From positions 2,170 to 66,169 of the forward strand of contig CAYIII010000001.1 in assembly GCA_964363475.1 (NCBI GenBank): a stretch of 64,000 nucleotides of DNA, in the 5' to 3' direction. The notes beneath the pieces were generated by a model. It did not search any database, was not told the origin of the DNA, and worked only from the letters and a program-made list of their open reading frames with translations. The position numbers were made by a program, and so were the translations under genes. Below, piece after piece: positions 161 through 61,580 of the stretch. This DNA is from an uncultured Candidatus Saccharibacteria bacterium. GTDB taxonomy: Bacteria; Patescibacteriota; Minisyncoccia; UBA6257; UBA11618. The first letter of the stretch is position 1; every line of letters starts with the position of its first letter.

Positions 161-399
161 ACCAGCGGGAGGGGGGTTGTTAGGATTGGGAGGAAAGACA
201 AGGGGAACGGGAGGCGGAATAAAAACGGGTGGACGAAAAATTTCTGATACTAAAGATAATAAAGAAGACCAGAGGTTTAAGGGACTTTTAGTTAATTGGT
301 TATTACCTTGGGCAAAAACCAAAGAAATTCCCGTTAAAAAAACAAACAATCCAAAAAAAAGTGTTTTTCTAAAAATCACACTTTTATTATAACACACCA

Positions 400-625
400 A
401 CAAACCCCACCTTACATCCTTCATCACTTCACAAACAAAATATCAATTACCAATTTTCAATTTACAATCAATTTTCAATTATCAATTTTCAATAAAATCC
501 CAAATCCCAATGACCAATGTCCAACAAAATCCCAAAATCTCAAATCCCAATAACCAATTATCAATTGCCAATTTACAATCAATTTTCAATTACCAATTAT
601 CAATTATTGATAATTAGGTCTTTTG
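400..625. repeat. Satellite-like low-complexity region of degenerate 6-9 nt units (CAATTTT, CCAATTA, AAATCCCAA), containing about four copies of the AAATCCCAA motif
   Basis: Direct reading. The motif CAAATCCCAATGACCAA here matches the 14-nt units inserted in folD (1028-1058) and resembles the 17302-17411 segment. Confidence 0.6.
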
Positions 626-636
626 TTTTAGATATA

Positions 637-936
637 AACAACCACCCTCTTTCTCGACGAGGCCGTGGAGGCGAATAAGTTGGGGGGTGGCTGGTGTTTG
701 TTGAGAAAGGCGTCTCGGAAGCCGAGCGGGCATGGTACCAGCAGTCTTGTTATAATATTCTATTAACAAGACTGCTGGTGAGCGAGGCTGAGAGTCGAGT
801 GGTGATTTTCTCGCTGGAGAAAATCAACCACGTACTTTCGAGACAAACACCAGACAGGACCCCCCCTTCTTTTATATGAGCCGTAACACCTGCCTGCCGG
901 TAGGCAGGGGTTGAGGAGAGGAAGAGGGTGGTTGTT
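637..936. repeat. Structured repeat element, copy A. Its 5' end AACAACCACCCTCTTTCTC (637-655) pairs with its 3' end GAGGAAGAGGGTGGTTGTT (918-936) in a 19-bp helix. Candidate ncRNA or MITE-like structured repeat
   Basis: Nucleotides 643-677 are identical to 27327-27361 of copy B. The 3' block TATATGAGCCGTAACA...GGTTGAGGAGAGGAAG is conserved, and the terminal helix shows a compensatory pair change versus copy B. There are internal variable hairpins (cagcagtcttgtta...taacaagactgctg, cctgcc...ggcagg). Confidence 0.6.
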
Positions 937-1717
937 AATTCTCTTTATTTAATTTATAAAAATTCTCAAAAAGTTTTGCCACCAAAATAGGGCCGGTACC
1001 GCCGGGAGTAGGGGTGTAAAAACCTAATTTGGTCATTGGGATTTGGTCATTGGGATTTTTAAGGTCTGGCGGAAAACCAAAATCTATAATCCCCGCTCCC
1101 TCTTTAAGCCATTCGGGGTCAATTAAATCCTTTTGTCCAACGCCGGTAATAATCAAATCCGCGCCTAATAAAAACTTAGCCAGATTCTTTGTCTTGCTGT
1201 CCGCTATTTTAAATTTTAAATTTTCCCGCCCCAGCCACTTGATAACCGGCTGGCCAACCAACTTCCCCTTCCCCACCACAATAATTTTTAAACTATTCAA
1301 ATTTTTGACGCCCGCCCAATCCAACACCTCCTTAACCACTCCAACCACCGGTGGCTCAACCAGCGCGCCGGCAGTAAGAGCGTCCACATCTTTTTTCGCG
1401 TCAATATTAGACAATACTTTTTCCCTGTCAAATTTTTTTGGCAAAGGAAGCTGAACAATTACGCCGCCAATATTAAAATCGCCGGATATTTTCTTAACTT
1501 TTTCTTCCAAATCTTCTTGAGAAACCAAATCTGACAACTGATATATATCAAATCTAATGCTCAAAATACCCGCAATCTTTTCTTTTATTTTTAAAAAGGA
1601 CTGAGACGCTTTGTCATTACCCACTAAAATAGCGGCCAGAATTTTATCAGGAACAGGACTCGCCCTCAACCTCTCAACTATTTTGCCGGCAATTAATCTG
1701 CCGTCCACTTTTTGCAT
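935..1717 (-). CDS. folD: bifunctional methylenetetrahydrofolate dehydrogenase/cyclohydrolase FolD
   Basis: 260-aa ORF with FolD-like motifs (GRLIAGK, VQLPLP, TPTPGGTGP); overlaps glyA. Contains an in-frame tandem 14-nt repeat insertion at 1028-1058. Confidence 0.85.
   Translation of the reverse strand: MQKVDGRLIAGKIVERLRASPVPDKILAAILVGNDKASQSFLKIKEKIAGILSIRFDIYQLSDLVSQEDLEEKVKKISGDFNIGGVIVQLPLPKKFDREKVLSNIDAKKDVDALTAGALVEPPVVGVVKEVLDWAGVKNLNSLKIIVVGKGKLVGQPVIKWLGRENLKFKIADSKTKNLAKFLLGADLIITGVGQKDLIDPEWLKEGAGIIDFGFPPDLKNPNDQIPMTKLGFYTPTPGGTGPILVAKLFENFYKLNKEN
1028..1058. repeat. Intragenic tandem duplication of a 14-nt unit (TTGGTCATTGGGAT x2) in folD, encoding ...KNPNDQIPMTK...
   Basis: Direct reading. 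Its reverse complement AATCCCAATGACCA x2 matches the AAATCCCAATGACCAA motif of the 400-625 satellite. Confidence 0.7.
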
Positions 1718-8293: not shown

Positions 8294-8596
8294 TGCCGCG
8301 GGGGTGAATCGAACACCCGACGCCAGCCTCTTCCAAGGCTTAGTTTGGACTATCTCATCCCCGTCTAGCGGGGCCGGGCGCTATTTGCAAGATTATTGTT
8401 GGGACTCACTCGCTAGTCTCTACACCTTCCAAAAAACCTTCCGCCTCCGCCGATTAGCAGATGCGGGGCCCTTCTTGGCTTGGCTCGGGATAGCCGCTTA
8501 TCGCGATTCCCCCGAATTCACCCGGTTATTCAATCTGCATTACTGCAGAAGGCCCCAAAGATTTAGGGCTGCGCTCTACCACTGAGCTACCGCGGC
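8294..8596 (-). tRNA. tRNA-Phe (anticodon GAA) interrupted by a 231-nt group I intron between positions 33 and 34
   Basis: Exon 1 is 8565..8596 and exon 2 is 8294..8333. They ligate to a 72-nt cloverleaf (GCCGCGG acceptor, TAGCTCAGTGGTAGAGC D-arm, anticodon loop CTGAAGA, T-loop TTCGATT, discriminator A). The splice site is supported by P1 (exon GCCCU with IGS GGGGC, U.G at the junction) and P10 (exon 2 GAAG with CUUU). Confidence 0.75.
8334..8564 (-). ncRNA. group I self-splicing intron in the tRNA-Phe anticodon loop
   Basis: The internal guide sequence CUUUGGGGC follows the 5' splice site, and the intron ends in G. R-like (UAGAGACUAGCG) and S-like (GAGAUAGUCC) elements could form P7 (GACUA/UAGUC). 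Confidence 0.7.
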
Positions 8597-10116: not shown

Positions 10117-10168
10117 CAGTGTTCGACAAGCCCTTCGACGCGGCTCAGGACAAGCTCACTGCAAGCAT

Positions 10169-17226: not shown

Positions 17227-17244
17227 TCAATTTTTAATTATATT

Positions 17245-17468
17245 GGAACTTGGTGCTTGAGATTTTATTAGGTTAATTAGAGTAATTAGAAATTAGAAAT
17301 TAACCTAATTAATCTAATAAAACCCCAAATCTCAATAACCAAATCCCAATAAAATCTTAAAATCACAAATCCCAACATTGGACCTTGGGGTTTGGGGCTT
17401 TGTTGGGATTTGGAACTTGGTGCTTGAGATTTTATTAGGTTAATTAGAGTAATTAGAAATTAGAAATT
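17245..17468. repeat. Complex intergenic repeat. Two identical 57-bp direct repeats (17245-17301, 17412-17468) flank a 110-bp segment rich in CAAATCCCAA / TTGGGATTTGG motifs. Each 57-mer has an internal inverted repeat
   Basis: Direct reading. ggaacttggtgcttgagattttattaggttaattagagtaattagaaattagaaatt occurs twice; 17262-17280 is complementary to 17303-17321; ccccaaa/tttgggg pairing is possible. Confidence 0.7.
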
Positions 17469-17525
17469 TTGTAAGGTGGACATTTATTTGACCAAAACGT
17501 CAAATTACCTTAAAATATCGGTTCA

Positions 17526-24328: not shown

Positions 24329-27223
24329 TTATTTTCTTATTCCCAGCCAAATTTTTGAGCCGTCTAAGTCAACCTCAATAAAATGCTCAACTTTTTCCGT
24401 TCTCTCAAAAATAATTTCTTCCGCGTTGATATCTTTTCTAAAACCCTTGTTGCTTTCTAAAACGCTTTGCAATTTTTTTGGCAAGTCGGCGTGCAAAATA
24501 ATTTTGTTTTGGGGGGAATATTCGGCATCGCGCCTTAATCCTTGAATCGCTCTCGCCAATTCCCTTACGGCGCCTTCATTTTTCAGTTCTTCGGTAATGT
24601 TAATATCCAGCTCAATCTCGTCATTAATTTTGGAATCAAAAATAATTTCTTTGACATTTATTTCATCGGCTAATATATGTAATAATTCTTCGTTATTTTT
24701 TAATTTTTCATTTTTAATTTTTAATTTCCTCAACGGCTGTCTTATCTTAATCCCCGCTTCCGCTCTTTTGGCCAAAGCCAAACTGGCCAACGTTCTGACA
24801 TCCGACATATCTTCAATTAATTTTTTACTTGCCCCTCGAAGCTTTAGCGAAGTGGGGTCAACCCTTGGCCATTCTTCCAAATGAACGGAAACGCCACCGC
24901 TTAAAGATTTATACAAAGCATCCGCGAAAAACGGGACGAATGGAGCGATTAGTTTGCTGATTTCCAGTAAAACATTTTGTAAGATAGGCAACGCCTCCGC
25001 GCGCTTGCGTGAACGGCGAATGTACCAATGAGACAAGTCGCTTACGAATAACTCTAAAATTTTAGCCGCATACCCTATTTCATATTTGTTAAGATTCTCT
25101 TCAACTTCTAAAATAGTTTCATTTAATCTGGAGAAAATCCACTTATCTAAAATATTACTTAACTGGAAATTAGTCCGCCAACTGGCGGATGGGACTTGGG
25201 GCTCATTTTTTGAATAGGTCTCAAAAAATACATATGAATTATAAAGCAACGAGATAAAACGCCTGAAGGCCTTGCTTAACTCCGCCTCATCAAACTTTTT
25301 GGGCTCTGCCGGAGGATTAACGGTATAGAAATACCACCTGATAACGTCTACTCCGTATTTATCAATCATCTCCCAAGGGTCAACGATATTATTTTTTGAT
25401 TTAGACATTTTCTGTCCATGTTTATCTAAAAGATGGCCAAGTGAAATAACATTTTTGTAAGGGGTGTCTTCATTTAATAAAACGCCAATGGCCAGCAATG
25501 TATAAAACCAGCCGCGAGTTTGGTCAATTGCTTCGCAAATATAATCCGCCGGATAACGGTTCGGATATTCTCCGCTCGCAAACGGCATGCCGCCGGAATC
25601 AAACCAAACATCCGCCACTTCTTTCACTCTTGTCATAGAGCCATTACACTTCGGACAAATTAATTTCACTTCATCAATATAAGGACGATGCAAATCAGCC
25701 GGCGCCTCACCGCCATGCTCTTTAAGTTCGTCTCTGCTGCCAATCACTAATTTTTCATCGCATTTTTCACACTCCCAAATAGGCAATGGCGTGCCCCAAT
25801 AACGCTCGCGAGAAATAGCCCAGTCCTTTACCCCTTGAAGCCACTCCCCGAAACGCCCGCTTTGAAGATGATGGGGAATCCAATTTATTTTCTCGTTGGC
25901 TTTTAACAAATCGCTTCTTAACTTACTCATCTCTATAAACCAAGAAAATCTGGGAAAGTAAATGAGGGCTCTGGAACAGCGCCAGCAAAAAGGATAGTCA
26001 TGTTCAATCGTGGTCTGGTAAAAAAGCAAATTTCTTTTTTGAAGGTCTTCTAATATATCTTTATCCGCTTCTTTAATATATTTGCCCGCGCCGGGCAATC
26101 CGTTTTTCATAATCCCCTGGTCATCAATAGTTACGGGAAAGTCGCTCATTTTGTTTCTCATTAAATTCAAGTCATCCTCGCCAAAAGAGGCAATATGAAT
26201 TAATCCGGTTCCATCTTCCGCGCTGACAAAATCAGCCTTCACCACTTCATGAGGACCGTTATTTTCATACAAGGACTCATATTTTAGGCCAATCATTTTT
26301 TTTCCGGAAAGTTTTTCTATGACCTCTATCTTAGTGTCCGAAGAAAATGGCGGCGCGTTAACAGCCCAAATATATTCGCCATTAATTTCATATTTTGTGT
26401 AAGTTAATTCCGGATTTACGGCAATAGCCAGATTTGCCGGCAAAGTCCACGGAGTGGTGGTCCATATTAATAAGTATTCGTTAACTTGGGATTTGGAACT
26501 TGGGATTTGGAACTTTATATATACTGACGGGTCCTTAACTTTCTTATACGCCCCCGGCTGTCCCAACTCATGGCTTGATAAAGATGTTTGGCAACGAGGG
26601 CACCACGGAACTACTTTATAAAACTTATTTAATAATCCCCTCTCGTCAATCTTTTTAAAAACGCCCCACAATTTTTCCAAATAATCGTTTTCGTAAGTTA
26701 TATACGCATTTTCAAAGTCCAACCAAAAACCGATTCTTTCAGTTAATTTTTCCCATTCATCCTTATATTTCCAGACGGATTCTTTGGCTTTTTTATTAAA
26801 TTCGGCAATGCCAAATTTTTCTATGTCCTGCTTGTTTTTAATTCCTAATTCTTTTTCAACTTCAATTTCCACGGGCAAGCCCTGCGTATCCCAACCGGCG
26901 CGACGGGGCGCATAATAACCTTGCATAGTTTTAAACCGTAAAATAATATCTTTAAAAGCACGGGCTAAGATATGATGAGTGCCGGGACGGCCATTGGCAG
27001 TCGGAGGACCTTCATAAAATATGAATTCTCTTTTCCCTTTTGATTGGCTTAAGGTTTTTGAAAAGATATTATTTTCTCGCCAAAAATCCAAAACTTTTTC
27101 TTCAATTTCTGGAAGATTAAACTGTTTTAAACCACGCAACATAAGTAAAATAATAAGCCAAAAACTGCTTTTTTTCAACGAAGGTTCGTTCATCAACAAC
27201 CATCCTCTATATAGCAACCCCAC
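24329..27223 (-). CDS. ileS: isoleucine--tRNA ligase
   Basis: 964 aa with the HIGH-class motif (PPTANGRPGTHH), KMSKS, and CP1 editing domain. Contains two in-frame repeat insertions (25165-25203 and 26484-26514). Confidence 0.9.
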   Translation of the reverse strand: MGLLYRGWLLMNEPSLKKSSFWLIILLMLRGLKQFNLPEIEEKVLDFWRENNIFSKTLSQSKGKREFIFYEGPPTANGRPGTHHILARAFKDIILRFKTMQGYYAPRRAGWDTQGLPVEIEVEKELGIKNKQDIEKFGIAEFNKKAKESVWKYKDEWEKLTERIGFWLDFENAYITYENDYLEKLWGVFKKIDERGLLNKFYKVVPWCPRCQTSLSSHELGQPGAYKKVKDPSVYIKFQIPSSKSQVNEYLLIWTTTPWTLPANLAIAVNPELTYTKYEINGEYIWAVNAPPFSSDTKIEVIEKLSGKKMIGLKYESLYENNGPHEVVKADFVSAEDGTGLIHIASFGEDDLNLMRNKMSDFPVTIDDQGIMKNGLPGAGKYIKEADKDILEDLQKRNLLFYQTTIEHDYPFCWRCSRALIYFPRFSWFIEMSKLRSDLLKANEKINWIPHHLQSGRFGEWLQGVKDWAISRERYWGTPLPIWECEKCDEKLVIGSRDELKEHGGEAPADLHRPYIDEVKLICPKCNGSMTRVKEVADVWFDSGGMPFASGEYPNRYPADYICEAIDQTRGWFYTLLAIGVLLNEDTPYKNVISLGHLLDKHGQKMSKSKNNIVDPWEMIDKYGVDVIRWYFYTVNPPAEPKKFDEAELSKAFRRFISLLYNSYVFFETYSKNEPQVPSASWRTNFQLSNILDKWIFSRLNETILEVEENLNKYEIGYAAKILELFVSDLSHWYIRRSRKRAEALPILQNVLLEISKLIAPFVPFFADALYKSLSGGVSVHLEEWPRVDPTSLKLRGASKKLIEDMSDVRTLASLALAKRAEAGIKIRQPLRKLKIKNEKLKNNEELLHILADEINVKEIIFDSKINDEIELDINITEELKNEGAVRELARAIQGLRRDAEYSPQNKIILHADLPKKLQSVLESNKGFRKDINAEEIIFERTEKVEHFIEVDLDGSKIWLGIRK
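25165..25203. repeat. Intragenic palindromic repeat element #1 in ileS (GGAAATTAG-TCCGCCAACTGGCGGA-TGGGACTTGG), encoding EPQVPSASWRTNFQLS
   Basis: Direct reading. The near-palindromic core TCCGCCAACTGGCGGA is shared with copies at 40281, 46589 and 36841. Confidence 0.8.
26484..26514. repeat. Intragenic tandem 14-nt repeat (AACTTGGGATTTGG x2) in ileS, encoding KFQIPSSKSQV
   Basis: Direct reading. Same TTGGGATTTGG motif as the folD insertion and the intergenic satellite regions. Confidence 0.7.
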
Positions 27224-27320
27224 CCCATATCCTTCATCAATACCGTCCTCGTTCAGAATAAAACTGAACTCGGATTAAATATTGATTCAGGATACGAGGT
27301 GGGGCTGTATACTAAACAAA

Positions 27321-27540
27321 AACCACCACCCTCTTTCTCGACGAGGCCGTGGAGGCGAATATATAAATTACGAAGCTTGGAGTAAGGCTATAAGCAAAAA
27401 AGCGCTGATAGAATCCCAAGTCCCGATACTAACAGTATCGGGACGGGTTGAGTTCGCTTTTTTGCTATATAGCACACGACAAGCGAGTCGCAATTTATAT
27501 GAGCCGTAACAGGTTGAGGAGAGGAAGGGGGTGGTGGTTT
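27321..27540. repeat. Structured repeat element, copy B. 5' AACCACCACCCTCTTTCTC (27321-27339) pairs with 3' GAGGAAGGGGGTGGTGGTT (27522-27540). Candidate ncRNA or MITE-like structured repeat
   Basis: Shares a 35-nt identical 5' block and a conserved 3' block with copy A (637-936). Internal hairpin cccgatact-aac-agtatcggg. Lies between divergent ileS and the Cas4-like gene. Confidence 0.6.
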
Positions 27541-36732: not shown

Positions 36733-37636
36733 GCAATAGTCCCGAAACCAACCAAAATATTATCAGGCCGGAACGCAAAGTCCATAAAAAATGGTCAAAT
36801 AAACCAAGTAAAACTAATGCCAGAAGCATTATTTTCAAATTTCCAATTTCCATCCGCCAACTGGCAGGCCAATTTCCAATAAATAAATAAATTAAAAAAA
36901 TAAGAAATAACGAAAAACCAACCAGCCCTATTTCTACCGCAATAGTTAAATATAAATTATGAATGGGACGCTCGCCCATCGCAAAAGTTAAGCCGTGACC
37001 AAACCACGGTTTTTCTTTTATTTTTTCCCAAGCAAATTGATAATCGCTTAAACGGTTCTGTACGGAAAAGTCCTGATAATTAAAATTAACGCGGGGGAAA
37101 ATCGCCCAAGAAAACATCAAGCTCAAAGTTACGAACGTTAAAAAAACAATTAATAATAAGTCCTTATTATAATTAATTAAAAGAAAAAGCGCGCTTGCCA
37201 TTATTCCCACAATCCAGCCGGCCCGAGAAAAAGTCAAAATCAATCCTAGCCAATTTATAAATATCGTCGCAACGAATAAGAATAAAAATTTTTTATTGTA
37301 CAGAAAATAAACGCTTAACAAACTTAAAACCAAAAAAGTGGCTAAAATATTGGGATGAGGAAACAAGCCATAGGCCCTTAATAACCGTCCCCCATCAATA
37401 AAAACCCGGGCCAAGTCCTTATTAAGAGGGCTTAAAAAGGACTCGCCTAAAAAATATAAACCCAAACTTTTATGAGAAACAAACTGAATCAAGCCAAGAA
37501 GAGATTGCAACGCGCCCAAAATCGTCAGACCAATAAATATCCGCCTTATTGATAAAAAATTTTTATTTGCCCTTATTTCCATTGGAAAGGGCCGCTTTTT
37601 TAACCACCCTATCTTCCAAAAACCAAAGAAAAACAA
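36707..37636 (-). CDS. O-antigen ligase-like (Wzy_C) membrane protein
   Basis: Multi-TM protein; contains the in-frame palindromic repeat at 36841-36880 encoding NWPASWRMEIGN. Confidence 0.5.
   Translation of the reverse strand: MFFFGFWKIGWLKKRPFPMEIRANKNFLSIRRIFIGLTILGALQSLLGLIQFVSHKSLGLYFLGESFLSPLNKDLARVFIDGGRLLRAYGLFPHPNILATFLVLSLLSVYFLYNKKFLFLFVATIFINWLGLILTFSRAGWIVGIMASALFLLINYNKDLLLIVFLTFVTLSLMFSWAIFPRVNFNYQDFSVQNRLSDYQFAWEKIKEKPWFGHGLTFAMGERPIHNLYLTIAVEIGLVGFSLFLIFLIYLFIGNWPASWRMEIGNLKIMLLALVLLGLFDHFLWTLRSGLIIFWLVSGLLLTSRVWRK
36841..36880. repeat. Intragenic palindromic repeat element #4, in opposite orientation relative to the host gene compared with copies #1 and #3
   Basis: + strand reads TTCCAATTTCCA-TCCGCCAACTGGCAGG-CCAATTTCCAA, the reverse complement of the GGAAATTGG-core-GGAAATTGG arrangement. 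Confidence 0.8.
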
Positions 37637-40011: not shown

Positions 40012-41111
40012 CGCTCACTGCCCTTTCCGGTAATTGCCACGACATCGCCGGGCCCAGCCAAACTAACAGCTTTTTTAATAGCTTCTTTTCTGTCCAATAT
40101 TTTTTGAGCCCGAGGACAACCCGCGGCTATTTCATTAATAATGTCTTCCAGTTCTTCATTATATGAATCTTCATCCGTCAAGATGATTTCATCGCAATAT
40201 TGCCCGGCAATTTTACCCATTTCCGGACGCTTCCATTTATCTCTCCCCCCACCGGCCGCGCCTAATACACATATTAATTTGGAAATTGGTCCGCCAACTG
40301 GCGGATGGGAATTGGGATTTTTTTCTCTAAGGGCCTCATAAACTTTACGCAAAGAGTCCGGCGTATGAGCATAATCCAAAACCACGGCAAATGGTTCTTT
40401 TTTTAAAAATTCCATTCTTCCGGAAATTCCGGAGAACTCGCCCACGGCTTCTTTAATAATATCGCGCGCAATGCCTCGCGATTCCGCGAAAGCGACGGCG
40501 GCGCCGATATTATATTTATTAAAATCGCCAATTAAATTGGAAAACAAATCGCTTTTTTCATAAAGAATAATTTTTCCTCCTCCAACGGCATCTATGAAAT
40601 CTTTTGAGCTAGCATCGTCTTTATTAATTATAAATAATTTTGAGAATCCACTGCCCGCATACCTAAAAAAATCTAATTTGGCTTTTTTATAATTATCAAA
40701 CGAACCATGGGCTTCAATGTGTTCTGGAGACAAATTAGTAAAAATAACAGCATCCCACTTGATAAAACGGTGGCGACTTTGTGAAACCCCTTGAGAAGTT
40801 ACTTCTATTAGAGCGTAATCACATTTACCGACAACCGCTTTCTTCAAAAATCTTTGCAAGAAAAATCTTCCGGGCATTGTCATGGAGGACTCACCATTAC
40901 GCAAAGAAGAACTTACGGCTACTTTCTTTCCCGCTTTTTCTAAAATAAAAGCCGTAAGCTCTAAAACGGTGGACTTTCCTTTTGTGCCCGTAACACCTAA
41001 AACAAAAATGTTCCTTGAGGGAAAATCGCAGAATAAAGCGGCAAAAAAAGACCATAACCAGTGATAGATAAAAACCAGCCAAGAAAAACGATAAAATATC
41101 TTTCTAATCAT
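39942..41111 (-). CDS. Mur ligase family protein (MurE/MurF-like UDP-N-acetylmuramoyl peptide ligase)
   Basis: P-loop VLGVTGTKGKSTV, Mur ligase middle and C domains. In-frame palindromic repeat at 40281-40320 encoding KNPNSHPPVGGPISKL. Confidence 0.6.
   Translation of the reverse strand: MIRKIFYRFSWLVFIYHWLWSFFAALFCDFPSRNIFVLGVTGTKGKSTVLELTAFILEKAGKKVAVSSSLRNGESSMTMPGRFFLQRFLKKAVVGKCDYALIEVTSQGVSQSRHRFIKWDAVIFTNLSPEHIEAHGSFDNYKKAKLDFFRYAGSGFSKLFIINKDDASSKDFIDAVGGGKIILYEKSDLFSNLIGDFNKYNIGAAVAFAESRGIARDIIKEAVGEFSGISGRMEFLKKEPFAVVLDYAHTPDSLRKVYEALREKNPNSHPPVGGPISKLICVLGAAGGGRDKWKRPEMGKIAGQYCDEIILTDEDSYNEELEDIINEIAAGCPRAQKILDRKEAIKKAVSLAGPGDVVAITGKGSERWIHKKNNQKIPWSDKQVVLSVI
40281..40320. repeat. 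Intragenic palindromic repeat element #2 (GGAAATTGG-TCCGCCAACTGGCGGA-TGGGAATTGGGATTT)
   Basis: Direct reading; shares the core and flanks with #1, #3, #4 and ends in the TTGGGATTT motif. Confidence 0.8.
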
Positions 41112-41689: not shown

Positions 41690-41783
41690 ATAGTGAGCTT
41701 GTCCTGAGCCGCGCCGAAGGGCTTGTCGAACTATTGCTTCCATAATATAGGACTTTATGGCATAATTCCAGCTCATTTCAAAT

Positions 41784-46372: not shown

Positions 46373-47138
46373 AATCAGTTAGAGCGGTTTCGTAGTCCAA
46401 TTTTCCCGATTTAACGGCAATGTCATAATCGGCCATTAATTTTTTATTTTCAGGACTTGTCGTGAAAGCCAAAACATTAAATATCTTAGCCGGGTCTTCT
46501 TCTTTTATTAATGTCTCCAAAATGGGTATTTTGCTTAAAAAATTACCGCGAGATAATTTATTAACTAAATTAAAAAAATCGTACCCTAATTGGAAATTGG
46601 TTCGCCAGTTGGCGGATGGAAATTGGAAATTATACAAAGCCAATTTGTCTAGCTCCGTAACAAGTCCCCAGCAATCCCCCCTATATTGCCTTAATAAATT
46701 ATTTAAAAAATCCAAAGGCAATTTTAGGTCTCTTTTTTCCAATTCTTTTTGCGCAAACTTTTCCCAGTCCTTATTTTGTAAAGTATCAAACTCTTGAAAA
46801 ATAACCGGTTTCTTCAAGAGAAAATCAAATTCCTTATTGGGCTTGTCATCAGAGACCAGCAATAAAATAAGCTCCTTTGTTGATAAGTTCTTCTTGAAAA
46901 TTTCTTTTAATTCCGATTGGAAGGGATTGGCAACTACTGCCATTCTGAAAGAATCAAACAAAGAAACCGCCGACACAAATTCCTTCAAACGAATCAAATC
47001 GTCGCCCTCCTCTAAATCAAACTTATCAACGCTTAAATGAGAATGTTTTAATTGATACTGCTTAACAATCTCCTTCTGCTTATGAAATCTGAAATATGAT
47101 TCCGGGCCGTAGAGAAAAATAATCATTGAATCTGGCAA
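46356..47138 (-). CDS. holA: DNA polymerase III subunit delta-like protein
   Basis: N-terminal IIFLYGPESYF (typical HolA start). Contains the in-frame palindromic repeat at 46589-46630. Confidence 0.55.
   Translation of the reverse strand: MPDSMIIFLYGPESYFRFHKQKEIVKQYQLKHSHLSVDKFDLEEGDDLIRLKEFVSAVSLFDSFRMAVVANPFQSELKEIFKKNLSTKELILLLVSDDKPNKEFDFLLKKPVIFQEFDTLQNKDWEKFAQKELEKRDLKLPLDFLNNLLRQYRGDCWGLVTELDKLALYNFQFPSANWRTNFQLGYDFFNLVNKLSRGNFLSKIPILETLIKEEDPAKIFNVLAFTTSPENKKLMADYDIAVKSGKLDYETALTDFAIML
46589..46630. repeat. Intragenic palindromic repeat element #3 (ATTGGAAATTGG-TTCGCCAGTTGGCGGA-TGGAAATTGGAAATT), encoding NFQFPSANWRTNFQL
   Basis: Direct reading; same frame and peptide as copy #1 in ileS. 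Confidence 0.8.
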
Positions 47139-51157: not shown

Positions 51158-51542
51158 ATTCTATCCACAAAGCGGATTTTGGCAATAATTCCTTGATTTT
51201 GTCCGCCCATTCTATTAAAAGAATATTTTTGGGATTATCTAGTATCTCCTTAAATCCTAGCGCCAGCAATTCTTCTGGATTTTTTATGCGATAGCAATCT
51301 ATGTGATAAGCCGAGGCGTAATTTTGTCCGCCAATCGGCGAATTTAATTTATAATTTTTAATTATCGTAAAGGTGGGACTTGTAATTCTGCCTTTCACCT
51401 TCAATGCCCTTAAAAAAAATTGGGAAAAGGTAGTTTTTCCAGCGCCCAAATCGCCAATTAAAGCAAAAATTCTGCAAGGCAACCGAGATGCTAGGTCCTC
51501 GGCTACTTCTCTAGTGTTAAAAATATCTTTTGAATTGGTCAT
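51111..51542 (-). CDS. tsaE: tRNA threonylcarbamoyladenosine biosynthesis protein TsaE
   Basis: P-loop GDLGAGKTTF; about 143 aa. Confidence 0.75.
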   Translation of the reverse strand: MTNSKDIFNTREVAEDLASRLPCRIFALIGDLGAGKTTFSQFFLRALKVKGRITSPTFTIIKNYKLNSPIGGQNYASAYHIDCYRIKNPEELLALGFKEILDNPKNILLIEWADKIKELLPKSALWIEFEHGKDKNERNIIID

Positions 51543-56604: not shown

Positions 56605-58953
56605 ATGTCTAGAAAAATATTAATCTACGGATTTTTAGGAATTTGCGCTCTAGCATTGGGAGGATTTTTTTATATTGAATTATTATTTAGAAACCTTCCT
56701 AATCCAACCCTATTTGACCAACGGCAAGTAGCGCAATCAACTAAAATTTATGATAAAACGGGCGAAGTTTTGCTCTATGAACTTTATGGAGAGCAAAAAA
56801 GGACGGTTATCCCGTTTGAGGAAATTCCGGAAATAATCAAAAATGCCTCTTTAATTATTGAGGATAAGGAATTTTATAATCATCCCGCCTTTGATTGGAA
56901 ATCCATTATAAGAGCAGCAATTATAAATTTAACCAGCGGACGCATTGTCCAAGGAGGGTCAACTATAACGCAACAATTAGCCAAAAACGCCTTCTTAAGT
57001 TCGGAAAGGACAATTAACAGAAAAATTAAGGAATTGCTCTTGGCTTTTCGTTTAGAAAAAAAATACACCAAAGACCAAATTCTAAATTTATATTTAAATC
57101 AGATTCCTTATGGAACGAATGCTTATGGCATAGAAGCGGCCGCGCAGACCTATTTTCAAAAAAAGGCCAAGAATTTAAATTTAGCCGAAGCCGCCTTATT
57201 GGCCAGTTTACCCAAAGCTCCCAGTTACTATTCTCCATGGGGCGAACATAAAGAAGAACTTACCGGACGCAAAAACTATATTATAGACCAAATGGCCGCG
57301 GCTAAGATGATTAGCGAAGAAGAAGCCGCCGAAGCTAAAAAAATTGAAATAGAATTTGCCCCGCAGACCATTAGCATCAACGCCCCTCATTTTGTAATAA
57401 CGATTCAGGATTATTTAAACAGCCATTATGGAGAGGATTTTGTCAGAAGCGCCGGATTAAAAGTTACAACAACTCTTGATTGGAAAATGCAACAATTAGC
57501 GGAAAAAGTGGTCGCCGAAGGAGCCGAAAATAATGAAAAATTATATAAAGGGAAAAATGCCGCTTTGGTCGCTCAAGACGCGAAAACAGGACAAATATTA
57601 GCCCTGGTTGGCTCCAGAAATTATTTTGATGAAGAAGTGGACGGCAACTTTAATGTTGCCACCCAAGGACTAAGACAGCCCGGTTCCGCCATTAAACCCA
57701 TCGCTTATTTAACGGCATTTATTAAAGGATATACTCCGGACTCCATAGTTTTTGATTTAGAAACAGAGTTTAATACCACGGACGAAGAAGAAAAAAGTTA
57801 TAAACCGCAAAATTATGACGAACAATTTCGCGGTCCCGTGACTATGAGGAACGGATTGGCGCAGTCAATAAACGTTCCGTCGGTAAAAACCCTTTATTTG
57901 GCGGGATTAGATGAGACATTAAAGAACGCTAAAAAAATGGGTATAACAACACTAACCGAAAGAAGCCGCTATGGTCTTTCGTTGGCGCTGGGAGGCGGCG
58001 AAGTCAAACTTATTGATTTAGTGGGCGCTTATTCGGTATTCAGCCAAGACGGCATAAAACATAAACAGGTATTTATTTTAAAAATAGAAGATAGTCAAGG
58101 TGAAATCATTGAAGAATATAAAGACCAATCGGAACAGATTATAGAACCGCAATATGTAAGATTAATAAATGATATTTTAACGGATATAGAGGCCCGCTCT
58201 TTATTATTTAGTAATAGCTTGAGTTTAACGGTTTTTCCAAATCAAGAAGTGGCTTTAAAAACCGGCACGACAAACGATTACAGAGACGCTTGGGCGATGG
58301 GCTATACTCCGTCCTTAACTGTGGGCGTGTGGGCCGGAAACAACGATAATCAACCAATGGAAAAAAGGGGCGGTAGTATTCTGGCGGCCGTTCCTATCTG
58401 GAATGCGTTTTTAAAAGAAGCGCTTAAAGAAACGGCGCTAGAAACATTTCCCAGACCGGAAGTGATTTTGGTAGATAAGCCGATATTAAAAGGAGAATAT
58501 ATAATAAATAATGAAATTCACGATATTCTCTATTATATTGATAAAAATAATCCCCAAGGACAATCGCCGTCCGACCCAAAAAAGGACTCTCAATTTGAGA
58601 ATTGGGAGAAAGTAGTAAGGGACTGGGCACAAATTAATTTACCGGCTTTATCTAATAATAATCCGAATAATCAATCTGTTATTGAGTTTTTGAATTTACA
58701 AAACGGCCAAACCATAACTAATCCTCTTAATATCAGTATTAAAATAAAAAGTTCTCAAGATATTACTAAATTAGAAACATATTTCAACGATAAACTAATA
58801 GACCAAAAATTCCTGAACTTGGGAAAAGAATTTGATTATCAAATGAATTTTGACTTAACTTTGGAACTACAAAACAAATTCACAATTAAAACATTTGATG
58901 TTTTAAATAATATTATAACTAAAGAAATAATTTTATATTCTAATGGGCATTAG
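56605..58953 (+). CDS. penicillin-binding protein 1A (bifunctional transglycosylase/transpeptidase)
   Basis: GT51 motifs (EDKEFYNHPAFDW, GGSTITQQLAKN), transpeptidase SAIKP, SIN, KTGT. Confidence 0.88.
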   Translation: MSRKILIYGFLGICALALGGFFYIELLFRNLPNPTLFDQRQVAQSTKIYDKTGEVLLYELYGEQKRTVIPFEEIPEIIKNASLIIEDKEFYNHPAFDWKSIIRAAIINLTSGRIVQGGSTITQQLAKNAFLSSERTINRKIKELLLAFRLEKKYTKDQILNLYLNQIPYGTNAYGIEAAAQTYFQKKAKNLNLAEAALLASLPKAPSYYSPWGEHKEELTGRKNYIIDQMAAAKMISEEEAAEAKKIEIEFAPQTISINAPHFVITIQDYLNSHYGEDFVRSAGLKVTTTLDWKMQQLAEKVVAEGAENNEKLYKGKNAALVAQDAKTGQILALVGSRNYFDEEVDGNFNVATQGLRQPGSAIKPIAYLTAFIKGYTPDSIVFDLETEFNTTDEEEKSYKPQNYDEQFRGPVTMRNGLAQSINVPSVKTLYLAGLDETLKNAKKMGITTLTERSRYGLSLALGGGEVKLIDLVGAYSVFSQDGIKHKQVFILKIEDSQGEIIEEYKDQSEQIIEPQYVRLINDILTDIEARSLLFSNSLSLTVFPNQEVALKTGTTNDYRDAWAMGYTPSLTVGVWAGNNDNQPMEKRGGSILAAVPIWNAFLKEALKETALETFPRPEVILVDKPILKGEYIINNEIHDILYYIDKNNPQGQSPSDPKKDSQFENWEKVVRDWAQINLPALSNNNPNNQSVIEFLNLQNGQTITNPLNISIKIKSSQDITKLETYFNDKLIDQKFLNLGKEFDYQMNFDLTLELQNKFTIKTFDVLNNIITKEIILYSNGH

Positions 58954-60045
58954 AATATAAAAATAAGATTTATCTTCTATTGGTTTTAGTAATGACGGTT
59001 TATTATAACCATTGCTTCCAAAAAAAACATTTTCGCCTTCAATAATCCTCAATCCATCCAATAAATAACGCCAATTAAAAGCTATTCCTTCAAAATCAGC
59101 CCCTTTTACTTTAGCCGGTATTAAATAATTATTTTCTCCTAATAACTGATTTAAAGAATATACTTCCAGGGTCTTCTGATTATTTTTAATCGCTAACCTA
59201 ATATCGTTTGTTTTCCCGCTGAAATTACTGACTAATTTAACCGAATTAATAAAATGATTTTTATTTAAAATAACTTCAGTTTCTATTTCTTTGGGAATAA
59301 TTTGCTCATAATCGGGGTAATTACCATCAATTAATCGAGAGATTAATTCGGTGGTGTTATTTTTAAATAATATCTGATTATTATCCAAAGATATTCTTAT
59401 AGGCATGTCATTAGAAAATATCCTTACTACTTCTTGAATTGTTTTTAACGGAATTATAATTTTAAAACTTTTATCAAAATTATGTTTAAATTGACTGCTG
59501 TTTAGGGTTTTTTCTGCTAAACGAAAACTGTCGGTTGTCACTAATTTTAATATCGTTAATTGAAAATCAAATAGAACTCCGCTTATTTCCGGCCTAATAT
59601 CGGATATTTGAGCCGCGTTTATCACTTTACTAATCGCGTCTTTAAAAGTTACTGGTTCTATTTCTAAGTAATTACTAGTATTTTCTAATTTTGGAATTAT
59701 AGGAAACTCATCTTCATGAATCCCCTGTATTTTGGCCTCATAATTATCGGTTTTAAAAATAAAATTATTATCAACTTTTTCTAAATTAATCCGTTCGTGA
59801 TTAGTATTATTAACAATGTTGTAAAAAGTATGAAAAGGCACTGTTAAACATCCTTCTTCTATTATTTTTCCGGAAATTACTTTTGTAATAGCTAATTCTA
59901 AATTAGTCGTTACCAGTTTAATTTTACCGTCAATTGTTTTTAATAAGACATTTTTTAATATCGGTAAATTAGAATTATCGGTAACAGCTCTTTCTGTTAT
60001 AGATAAACCGTCTTTTAAATTATCCTTAAACATTATTACTTTCAT
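58933..60045 (-). CDS. dnaN: DNA polymerase III subunit beta
   Basis: 370 aa, three-domain sliding clamp pattern; immediately downstream of dnaA. Confidence 0.8.
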   Translation of the reverse strand: MKVIMFKDNLKDGLSITERAVTDNSNLPILKNVLLKTIDGKIKLVTTNLELAITKVISGKIIEEGCLTVPFHTFYNIVNNTNHERINLEKVDNNFIFKTDNYEAKIQGIHEDEFPIIPKLENTSNYLEIEPVTFKDAISKVINAAQISDIRPEISGVLFDFQLTILKLVTTDSFRLAEKTLNSSQFKHNFDKSFKIIIPLKTIQEVVRIFSNDMPIRISLDNNQILFKNNTTELISRLIDGNYPDYEQIIPKEIETEVILNKNHFINSVKLVSNFSGKTNDIRLAIKNNQKTLEVYSLNQLLGENNYLIPAKVKGADFEGIAFNWRYLLDGLRIIEGENVFFGSNGYNKPSLLKPIEDKSYFYILMPIRI

Positions 60046-60221
60046 ATTATTTATTTAATATATTTATTAGTAGTTAATAGTAGCACTTTTAATTTTTGTT
60101 GATAACTCATTTTTATTGCATTATTCCTCATATTTTTCATTTAATAAATTGTTTATAAAATCTTAAGTAATTCTGATATTATTGTTTATAATCTTTAATC
60201 GTCAATCTTTTCCACATTTAA
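60046..60221. promoter_or_regulatory. AT-rich dnaA-dnaN intergenic region; candidate DNA-unwinding element or secondary oriC module
   Basis: 176 bp of very high A+T with a DnaA-box-like TGTTGATAA at 60097-60105. Confidence 0.4.
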
Positions 60222-61580
60222 TTAATTTTTTATTAACCTGTCTTTAATAGTTAAAATATTTTGGCTTAACGTCTGATTATTACTTAATTCCCTGGTAATT
60301 TTTTCACAAGCGTATATAACGGTGGTATGGTCTCGTTTCCCCAGCCTTTCCCCAATAAAAGGATAAGAAAGACTTAAAATATCTCTTAATAAATAAGCGG
60401 TTATTTGTCTGCATTCCACTAATTCTTTTTTTCTGCTACGGCTAATTAAATCACTGGGAGATATTTCAAAATAATCGGCCACGGTCTTAATTATTTGGTC
60501 GGGGCCGATATTTTTTACCGGCTCTTTAATAACTTCACTCATGATTTGTTCTGCTAATTTTGTGGTTATTTCTAAATTCTTAACTTGCTGATAAAAAAGG
60601 ATTCTATTTAAAATACCTTCTAATTCCCTTAATCCCTTTCTAACTTTGTTGGCAATACAATTAACCACCTCGTCATTTAAGACCGCTCCCTTGCTAGCAA
60701 GTTTATTTTTTAAAACAGCCACTTTTAATTCATAATCGGGATATGTAATGTCAACAATCATCCCCCCTTCAAATCTAGACCTCAATCGTTCTTCTAAAAT
60801 TGGTATAAAACGCGGCGATCTGTCGGAAGATAAAACTATTTGCTTGTTGGCCTCATATAAAGCGTTGAAGGTATGAAAAAACTCTTCTTCAGTTCGGGCC
60901 TTTCCTCCCACAAATTGGATGTCATCAATAATTAAAACATCCACCATCCTATACTTATCTTTAATGGTCTCCATTCTTTTATTTCTCATTGCCCAAATCA
61001 CTTCATTAGTGAACTTTTCAGAGGGAACATATCGTATTTTGATTTTATTTTCATATAATTTATTAATCTCATTGCCCAATCCTTGGATAAGATGGGTCTT
61101 CCCTACCCCTACTCCGCCGTAAATAAATAAAGGATTATATTTTTTGCCTATATTTTTCAACACGGCCGACACGGCCGCGTGCGCCATTTCATTGGAAGAG
61201 CCAACCACAAACGAATCTAACGTATAGCTTGGATTTAAATTGGTCTCGGGGTCAACTTTTAATTCCGAAAAAACCAACTGATGATTTTTTTCGGACAGAT
61301 TTGCGCTTTTGCCCGCCGTTGATGCTAATTGATTGCCATGAACGCAATATTCAACCTTACGAATATTACTGTCAATGTTTCTTAGAGCCCCTAAAATTAT
61401 TTTGTGATACTTATTTTCCACCCACTCTTTAGCGAAATTATTAGGCAGGCCGACTGTCATCGCTCCGCTTTCTTTATTGCTAATTAGTTTGCTGTTTTTT
61501 AACCAAGTGGCAAAATTGGGGCGAGAAACCTGTAATTCAATTTCACCCAACGCTTTTTCCCACAAGGAATTTAAATCCAT
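60222..61580 (-). CDS. dnaA: chromosomal replication initiator DnaA
   Basis: Walker A GGVGVGKTHL, Walker B, C-terminal DNA-binding signature (ISPSDLISRSRKKELVECRQITAYLLR). Confidence 0.92.
   Translation of the reverse strand: MDLNSLWEKALGEIELQVSRPNFATWLKNSKLISNKESGAMTVGLPNNFAKEWVENKYHKIILGALRNIDSNIRKVEYCVHGNQLASTAGKSANLSEKNHQLVFSELKVDPETNLNPSYTLDSFVVGSSNEMAHAAVSAVLKNIGKKYNPLFIYGGVGVGKTHLIQGLGNEINKLYENKIKIRYVPSEKFTNEVIWAMRNKRMETIKDKYRMVDVLIIDDIQFVGGKARTEEEFFHTFNALYEANKQIVLSSDRSPRFIPILEERLRSRFEGGMIVDITYPDYELKVAVLKNKLASKGAVLNDEVVNCIANKVRKGLRELEGILNRILFYQQVKNLEITTKLAEQIMSEVIKEPVKNIGPDQIIKTVADYFEISPSDLISRSRKKELVECRQITAYLLRDILSLSYPFIGERLGKRDHTTVIYACEKITRELSNNQTLSQNILTIKDRLIKN

Follow-up and report, generated by a model that had tools for sequence, protein, structure and literature searches.

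A candidate family of modular, hairpin-forming intergenic repeats in an uncultured Patescibacteria bacterium

In the 64,000-nucleotide stretch of DNA analyzed here (the window, part of a contig from an uncultured Candidatus Saccharibacteria bacterium), the spacer beyond the folD gene holds a 300-nt element with complementary ends, part of which recurs elsewhere in the window. The question that this locus raises is whether such an element is a gene for a structured RNA, a regulatory part of its neighbor, or a repeat that has been inserted there. The genomes of Patescibacteria are very small and tightly packed, and are thought to hold little repetitive DNA. The reading that we favor, and that we consider probable by a modest degree, is that the element belongs to a new family of intergenic repeats, restricted to its lineage, that are modular, nested and hairpin-forming in the manner of REPIN, BOX and ERIC, and in which the fold of one strand would be needed for copying or retention; part of the same joint reading is that the family is non-autonomous selfish or mobile DNA in an uncultured bacterium of the Patescibacteria (Candidate Phyla Radiation, CPR). 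It is favored because near-identical copies lie at unrelated loci, two of three related folD loci are empty, copies have decayed to single arms, the pairing ends enclose exchangeable modules, and the changes between copies are compensatory.

The element, copy A, occupies positions 637-936 on the + strand as a G+C-rich island within a low-G+C window, and adjoins the stop codon of folD (935..1717, minus strand) at a distance of 0 nt. A preliminary description had pointed to a 5' block shared with a second copy, B; the identity holds, while the block proves to be 36 nt long (642-677) and not 35 nt (643-677). This block, CCACCCTCTTTCTCGACGAGGCCGTGGAGGCGAATA, has two exact sites in the window, 642-677 and 27326-27361, where shuffled sequences lead one to expect none. 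Two 3' blocks, TTTATATGAGCCGTAACA (871-888) and GGTTGAGGAGAGGAAG (909-924), are identical in copy B as described, and the proposed 19-bp terminal helix, P1, between 637-655 and 918-936 is paired in the minimum-energy fold. The + strand of copy A folds at -162.7 kcal/mol (z -12.5) and that of copy B at -117.6 kcal/mol (z -13.9), with no shuffle equaling either; the minus-strand folds are weaker by 27 and 18 kcal/mol, respectively. Both copies fold as long rods, and their interiors cannot be aligned with one another. A third full copy, C, lies on contig L232 (146-445), and a diverged relative, H, lies beside copy B; both are described below. The parts of copy A are as follows.

620..636, + strand: left extension CTTTTGTTTTAGATATA, common to A and C (15/17 identical), with no 3' counterpart in the alignment of A, C and B with their flanks
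637..655, + strand: P1 5' arm, pyrimidine-rich AACAACCACCCTCTTTCTC, pairing with 918-936; two columns compensatory among A, B and C
656..677, + strand: 5' core, GA-C-GA-GGCC-GUGGA-GGC-GAA-UA, identical in A, B and C
678..688, + strand: 5' side of the connector stem, a G-run pairing with 856-870 in the fold
689..855, + strand: nested inner module, a three-way junction with closing stem 689-701/843-855, absent from copy B and from H
856..870, + strand: 3' side of the connector stem in the fold, a C-run; the strain differences at 858 and 864 are both here
871..888, + strand: first part of the 3' core, TTTATATGAGCCGTAACA, identical in A, B and C
889..908, + strand: optional 20-nt hairpin CCTGCC-TGCCGGTA-GGCAGG at the junction, in A and C
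909..917, + strand: second part of the 3' core, GGTT-GA-G-GA, identical in A, B and C, pairing with or facing 656-664
918..936, + strand: purine-rich 3' arm of P1, GAGGAAGAGGGTGGTTGTT, resembling a Shine-Dalgarno sequence and ending in two bases of the folD stop codon

The general plan is thus a rod closed by a terminal helix of 19-20 bp, with a pyrimidine-rich 5' arm (which may resemble the 3' tail of 16S rRNA) and a purine-rich 3' arm, followed by a conserved core and then by a variable apex. Within the core the 5' part lies opposite the 3' part, producing three tandem GA x GA internal loops stacked between short helices. The apex holds an unrelated rod in copy B and the three-way-junction module in copies A and C, with the 20-nt hairpin as an optional addition. 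The extra hairpins that had been remarked upon in copy A are present at 737-752/764-779 and, as the 20-nt CCTGCCTGCCGGTAGGCAGG, at 889-908, and the 61-amino-acid open reading frame (ORF) at 694..879 inside the element is in the ORF list.

The core resembles several known motifs at first sight, and these were considered and set aside. A kink-turn has a C-stem, a 3-nt bulge and then G.A/A.G pairs, with G at position 1b; GGC-GAA-UA facing U-GA-GCC has U and not G at that position, and the corresponding site in member H is a symmetric GA x GA without a bulge. The CGACGA...GAA of the core is unlike the CUGANGA...GAAA of a hammerhead, and the helix topology is wrong. Integron attC sites have RYYYAAC/GTTRRRY core sites, span 57-141 bp, and are accompanied by an integrase and cassette ORFs; the ends AACAAC...GTTGTT of this element depart from that consensus, the element is too large, and there is no integrase among the ORFs of the window. 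Identities as 6S RNA, SRP RNA, RNase P or T-box were also considered and dropped. By eye the element had matched no consensus for RNase P, SRP, 6S, tmRNA, T-box or common riboswitches, and a scan of Rfam 15, in which ribozymes, HEARO and other families are also represented, yields nothing at the gathering threshold and, at E<=10, only microRNA- or long-noncoding-RNA-type noise for copies A and B and contigs L123 and L232.

The strongest constraint on interpretation comes from the pattern of substitution. The window comes from the Hainich groundwater aquifer (well H51, 0.1 µm fraction), and the contigs compared with it are designated by L numbers. Copy C was found by a degenerate 22-mer scan of the JGI metagenome collection, in which the core 22-mer matches only contigs of the source population. 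Copy C is 99% identical to copy A, yet its locus is an unrelated one, with the pth stop codon 38 nt away. Inside the 300 nt the two copies differ at exactly two bases, and these are partners in P1, such that a C-G pair has become U-A (CCACCC/GGGTGG vs CCATCC/GGATGG); we estimate at about 1 in 900 the chance of a second substitution falling on the partner base and re-forming the pair. Copy B adds the switched pair noted in the preliminary description, A-U in copy A and C-G in copy B, together with a U-A that becomes U.G (alignment columns 8/119 and 16/111). Across A, B and C, P1 therefore has two compensatory pairs, one U-A/U.G change and no pair-breaking change; neither A nor C has an equivalent of the outermost pair in the 20-bp helix of copy B. 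The locus of copy A is also covered by a contig from a different sample, which has two single-nucleotide polymorphisms (SNPs) in 4,717 bp, both inside the element: that at 858 falls on an unpaired base, and that at 864 (C->T) turns G684-C864 into G.U. Surviving substitutions are those with which the rod stays paired on one particular strand. The earlier claim, of ends under constraint as a helix and not as two independent transposase sites, is strengthened by the second compensatory pair in copy C, by member H, which keeps the architecture with other helix sequences, and by seven compensatory pairs in the composite rods described below.

Comparison of related folD loci indicates that copy A is an addition. 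The distance from folD to the next gene is 538 nt here vs 20 nt on contig L121 and 105 nt on contig L124, whose FolD proteins are 73% and 61% identical, respectively. The element is missing from these two of the three related loci examined, and the third, on L123, has a different module there. The FolD C-terminus reads ...LNKEN* here, with a stop codon derived partly from the element, and ...LND*, ...LNS* or ...LNC* in its three closest homologues (P0002-P0004). A box, TGTTATAAT, before the gene downstream of folD is conserved in the relatives. The sequence shared by A and C begins 17 nt to the left of P1 and stops exactly at the 3' end of P1, so the repeat unit is asymmetric. Contigs are broken in or beside the element in three samples (L226-L228, L230, L122), as expected of a multi-copy repeat.

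The search for further copies that had been recommended recovered copy C, member H, solo arms and half elements, which together with copy B are listed below.

27320..27540, + strand: copy B, with a shell as in A, namely P1 27320-27339/27521-27540 (20 bp) and cores 27340-27361 and 27494-27520
27212..27310, - strand: member H, a 99-nt relative of the shell, diverged and simpler in form, 10 nt from copy B
402..427, - strand: solo H-type 3' arm GTGATGAAGGATGTAAGGTGGGGTTT, a fuzzy match, followed by TGTTATAAT
27191..27208, - strand: solo copy-C-type P1 3' arm fragment AGAGGATGGTTGTTGATG, 18 nt identical to L232:432-449
L230:60-112 and L232:61-104: half-H elements
L232:446-478: a further arm remnant, read by eye

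Copy B lies between the divergent genes for ileS and a PD-(D/E)XK nuclease, and its interior is an unrelated rod of 132 nt. Member H scores 39.1 bits (E 2e-7 over 130 kb) against a covariance model of the shell with the interior removed, and folds at -62 kcal/mol (z -9.1). It begins with a 19-bp P1 (C-rich 5' arm, G-rich 3' arm), a GA x GA and one pair. The GGCC/GGUU stem of the shell is replaced by a 4-bp stem, AAUA/UAUU; beyond an internal loop, UCC/GGA (3 bp) takes the position of GGC/GCC, and another GA x GA leads to the apical hairpin. GA x GA is retained at two of three positions, the third having UC facing GA, which forms two Watson-Crick pairs. A hand-made, structure-guided core alignment of A, B, C and H has 97.6% of its cells paired, and in 17 of its 31 pairs both partners have changed, a result which 0/500 shuffles reach; since structure guided the alignment, the homology of H rests on the model score and the shared non-canonical positions.

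Two functional gene starts, at 395-403 (-) and 27191-27208 (-), have repeat-derived sequence. The box TGTTATAAT, which by eye fits an extended -10 consensus and is also found in relative L121 with no insert, is upstream of a gene for a 202-amino-acid secreted protein, the gene beyond folD, and the solo H-type arm stands directly upstream of this box. Fragment AGAGGATGGTTGTTGATG contributes GAGGA (Shine-Dalgarno-like) and the ATG of ileS, and the 954-amino-acid ileS gene call on L225 begins at the ATG within it. Beyond these, covariance models R1 and R2 brought up no extra members, either in the window or in some 60 kb of sequence from relatives; nor can they span the 130-200-nt inserts of A, B and C. 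A genome-collection scan with GACGAGGCCGTGGAGGCGA gave more than 119 chance matches, in G+C-rich genomes and Streptomyces-type coding sequence, none of those listed having the 3' block; in viral contigs, scans for the inner-module motif and for both the 5' and 3' blocks gave chance hits only, and blastn against phage and plasmid collections gave no match.

Exchange of modules is illustrated by the interior of copies A and C (689-855), which is a separate three-way-junction module with the following parts and homologues.

722-736, + strand: conserved CCGAGCGGGCATGGT
737-779, + strand: hairpin HP1
780-794, + strand: conserved GAGCGAGGCTGAGAG
801-829, + strand: hairpin HP2, with loop CTCGCTGG
L123:1556-1712 (+), L123:1392-1552 (-), L234:1228-1385 and L241:436-593 (-): inner-module homologues with covarying stems

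Conservation across the homologues extends to CCGAGCGGGCAYGGT, GAGCGAGGYYGAGAG and a hairpin whose loop is CUCGCUGG. On L123, which encodes a 68%-identical FolD, two inner modules follow folD in opposite orientations, their stems different yet complementary, and on L234-L237 and L241 the module sits at the apex of quite different nested rods. Three related genomes have the module, nested in rods of other kinds and with many compensatory changes; the MAFFT alignment of the module is too poor for a formal count of pairs. The composite nested rod is 335 nt long and 90% identical between L234:1112-1446 and L241:377-709 (-), at unrelated loci (a PD-(D/E)XK-smpB spacer on L234; upstream of the gene gap on L241). 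Of its 30 substitutions, 11 are unpaired, 12-14 compensated, 2-3 wobble-compatible and 2-5 pair-breaking; RNAalifold identifies seven compensatory pairs of 115, and a side hairpin keeps its CAGC loop with three of seven stem pairs swapped.

Smaller units also vary in presence. Copy B has the 20-nt hairpin after GTAACA in one sample (contig L227) and lacks it in the window and in others, and because the shared flanks of 18 and 16 nt are too short, a typical k-mer assembly chimera is unlikely to account for this polymorphism. HP1 is missing exactly in L235; comparison of L235:1030-1480 with L234:1100-1465 shows the HP1-less inner module recombined to a different right flank. Spurious ORFs of 84-164 amino acids are called across rods of the L234/L235 type, and a search with the one translated from the L234 rod found two related ORFs only.

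The distribution of G.U pairs bears on which molecule folds. Counted on the favored vs the other strand, there are five vs none in copy A, eight vs three in copy B, six vs none and five vs none in the two L123 modules (Li1 and Li2), and six on the minus strand vs two on the plus strand in H; the L234/L241 composite rod has no such asymmetry. Copies B and H are adjacent and prefer opposite strands, so a regional mutation bias is an unlikely cause, and the sequences indicate folding of one particular single strand. DNA folding parameters give the same strand ranking (-86 vs -76 kcal/mol), so folding does not distinguish RNA from single-stranded DNA (ssDNA).

The alternative that survives best, which we regard as a real though clearly less likely one, is that the elements are genuine small-RNA genes, giving RNAs of 100-300 nt from the + strand (minus in the case of H) with their ends locked in P1, the stacked tandem G.A core serving as a protein-binding or tertiary-contact platform and the variable apex as functional modules. 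The strand-specific G.U excess in A, B, the L123 modules and H would be expected of such genes, as would the compensatory changes, the invariance of the non-Watson-Crick core positions between the shell and H, and the retention of an inner module with covarying stems in at least four genomes. Copy B has a good -10 box by eye, TATACT (27307-27312), 7 nt before P1, and P1 is flanked by an A-tract and U-rich tails in a terminator-like manner. However, A and C have no comparably good -10 box, and consensus scans for sigma-70 promoters and intrinsic terminators gave nothing consistent at A, B or C; the left extension at 620..636 has weak -10-like hexamers only, and the promoter scan gave none there. 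An intrinsic terminator as such was also rejected, both on the consensus scan of the three copies and on the fact that P1 closes a rod of 220-300 nt and not a short hairpin. Near-identical dispersed copies, solo arms, half elements and strain-level module insertions and deletions are the behavior of repeats, the element is missing at two of the three related folD loci, A and C run antisense into the 3' ends of folD and pth, and the interiors of A and B are unrelated. A hybrid of the two ideas strikes us as unlikely, though not negligibly so: the rods may be strand-specific functional structured RNAs, in which the tandem G.A platform would dock a protein and exchangeable apical modules would set specificity, their genes spreading as mobile non-coding RNA cassettes, perhaps via an RNA or ssDNA intermediate that requires the helix.

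It is improbable that each element is a gene-specific regulatory RNA or terminator acting in cis, that is, a leader, riboswitch or T-box for ileS or the nuclease gene, or a 3' stabilizer or terminator for folD and pth. The positions at gene ends (A at 0 nt from the folD stop, C at 38 nt from the pth stop) suit this proposal, as do the locations of B and H in the leaders of divergent genes, with the better-folding strand of each co-directional with the downstream gene. Yet the same element lies beside functionally unrelated genes, A and C are each antisense, on the better-folding strand, to the gene beside them, two of three related folD loci do without the element, and there is no Rfam match to a riboswitch, T-box or leader and no terminator consensus.

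A slightly poorer prospect still is a classical miniature inverted-repeat transposable element (MITE), a deletion derivative of a DDE-transposase insertion sequence (IS) moved by cut-and-paste through terminal inverted repeats (TIRs), its fold being incidental. The terminal inverted complementarity of 19-20 bp, the small size, the intergenic position, the several copies and the high degree of pairing all recall MITEs. A plain MITE would have identical ends and target-site duplications; instead the ends covary, as copy C shows anew, and the inspection of flanks recommended earlier found no duplication at A, B or C. The A/C unit is asymmetric, with 17 extra nucleotides on the left only, the arm mismatches are of the G.U type and favor one strand, and the arms are pyrimidine- and purine-rich and not symmetric sites. 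The element is G+C-rich relative to the genome, no transposase is found in the window, pairing extends through the whole 220-300 nt, and compensatory changes reach deep into the related rods. Least credible of all is a retron-like or other reverse-transcriptase-templated non-coding RNA with the terminal repeats as a1/a2 and the long variable hairpin as msd, for despite a similar layout of complementary ends, conserved 5' part and long variable hairpin, there is no reverse transcriptase beside any copy or within the 64 kb, several copies stand at housekeeping loci, and no Rfam retron matches.

We therefore return to the repeat family. Copies have been added at unrelated loci, and some have decayed to solo arms. 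Copying or retention would proceed through a folded single-stranded intermediate, either ssDNA handled by a trans-encoded enzyme outside the window or a transcript, and a copy whose helix is broken would neither propagate nor persist. After insertion the rods are probably co-transcribed with neighboring genes, and their part at gene ends and in 5' leaders may be the passive one of a highly stable structure; arm fragments may occasionally be co-opted, as in the case of the Shine-Dalgarno-like sequence and start codon of ileS.

Several observations weigh against this interpretation. No direct repeat was seen by eye flanking A, B or C, nor by comparison with the empty sites of L121 and L124, where AT-rich resemblances are unconvincing, so neither a target-site duplication nor a defined insertion footprint marks the three copies. 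No mobilizing enzyme was found: a Pfam scan of the ORFs of at least 110 amino acids in the window gave no transposase, integrase or reverse-transcriptase domain, and the window has no RAYT (Y1 transposase) gene. Three full copies make a very small family for a successful mobile element, and conservation of the inner module in at least four genomes is unusual for junk. Hairpin-templated correction of the arms, and not selection, could have produced the compensatory changes. An RNA gene would account for the strand asymmetry just as well, and the core, with its stack of three tandem G.A motifs and what may be a UAA/GAN-like junction, looks like that of a functional RNA.

Other features of the window were recorded in passing. 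At 8295-8596 (-) is a tRNA gene, by eye with anticodon GAA (Phe), split by a group I intron (Rfam Intron_gpI, 49.6 bits at 8324-8574, E 1e-11, just below the gathering score of 50); it was missed by ARAGORN and by the Rfam gathering scan, and an uninterrupted version is present at L121:3800-3873. An ORF just downstream begins MDWNYIAGFFDGEGS and is LAGLIDADG-like in appearance. Group I introns are known in tRNA genes of Patescibacteria (PMC13011429). A 40-nt sequence, GTTCGACAAGCCCTTCGACGCGGCTCAGGACAAGCTCACT, occurs at 10121-10160 and, inverted and 98% identical, at 41692-41731, 31.5 kb apart; the first copy is 4 nt after a tRNA-Pro gene, and the repeat may be an attachment-site or inversion scar. 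A second small repeat family, at 25163-25204, 36838-36880 (-), 40279-40320, 46590-46631 and 51316-51357, consists of a GTCCGCCAACTGGCGGA(T) palindrome flanked by GGAAATTGG-type low complexity and looks like a dispersed terminator-like hairpin. Low-complexity CAATTTTCAATTA / AAATCCCAA is found in intergenic gaps (429-604, 17236-17470), in frame in folD (1029-1061), where it gives the residues NPNDQIPMTK of a loop variable among homologues, and within ileS (26486-26518). Finally, dnaA and dnaN, with adjacent rnpA, yidC and a gene for an R3H domain, lie at 58933-61580, a probable replication origin region. Here contig L240, from another sample, has 43 mismatches in 8 kb relative to the window and L239 only one, so at least two strains coexist.

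We found no paper on MITE-, REP- or BOX-like repeats in Patescibacteria. If the favored reading is right, genomes of this kind would be shown to host intergenic elements that are self-propagating or structurally selected. Such rods fragment assemblies, part formerly adjacent genes such as folD and its downstream neighbor, and can donate a ribosome-binding site and start codon, as at ileS. Rfam contains neither the three-way-junction module nor the tandem-GA core, and the two constitute a candidate new structured nucleic-acid motif; were transcripts to be found, the family would provide a tractable case of structured RNAs arising from, or spreading as, repeats.

Among known systems, 6S RNA and other rod-like regulatory RNAs are also rods, 180-300 nt long, whose 5' and 3' ends pair to close them, but there is no Rfam match to 6S RNA, conservation in the present elements is found close to the closing stem and not in a central bubble, and the element has several copies and is missing at two of the three related folD loci. 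Retron non-coding RNAs likewise have complementary termini around a conserved 5' part and a long variable hairpin; a retron, however, is single-copy and needs an adjacent reverse transcriptase, neither of which applies here. The ERIC/IRU and Correia elements, too, occur at gene ends as imperfect palindromes, 100-300 nt long, that fold strongly as RNA, and ERIC has internal insertion variants whose sites are fixed. Correia elements differ in their 26-bp TIRs and TA duplications, whereas here there is no duplication, the ends covary and the pairing is strand-asymmetric. MITEs of the ERIC and Correia type can give neighboring genes promoters or processing sites (PMC3049150).

In the BOX elements of Streptococcus (boxA-boxB(n)-boxC), the end modules are conserved and enclose inner modules that vary in number and fold independently (PMC3049150). 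The likeness extends to the pairing of the conserved 5' and 3' ends, to inner modules that may be there, be missing or be exchanged while the shell stays intact, and to length variation among strains; in Streptococcus suis different families of end modules surround the same inner module, just as here one inner module is found in different rods. Similarity of sequence to BOX is not apparent: Rfam and the phage and plasmid collections gave no match, and the host belongs to a different phylum. BOX inserts are a tandem 45-nt unit, in contrast to the unrelated rods, three-way junction and 20-nt hairpin found here; BOX is far more abundant, and its TIRs have been proposed to be IS-like.

REPINs, known with their RAYT transposases from Pseudomonas and Enterobacteria, are predicted to form hairpins as ssDNA or mRNA, with compensatory changes common and singlet remnants present (PMC3116915). 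They resemble these elements as intergenic non-autonomous hairpin units with compensatory changes, singlet remnants and a nested or clustered arrangement (PMC3116915), and also in the asymmetry of the replicative unit, the 5' tail of the REPIN corresponding to the 17-nt left extension of A and C. REPINs, however, are about 70-110 nt long and consist of two REP palindromes of about 25 nt with a GTAG-type head, and they reach tens to hundreds of copies alongside a single-copy RAYT. The elements described here measure 99-300 nt, have pyrimidine- and purine-rich arms that are not palindromic and lack a GTAG-type head, contain the stacked tandem-GA core, and are very few, with no RAYT in the 64 kb. 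Structured intergenic repeats are thus a known kind of element, from which this family differs in host, in its very low copy number and in architecture, the novelty of the last lying in the stacked tandem G.A core, the pyrimidine and purine arms, the Russian-doll nesting and the conserved three-way-junction cargo.

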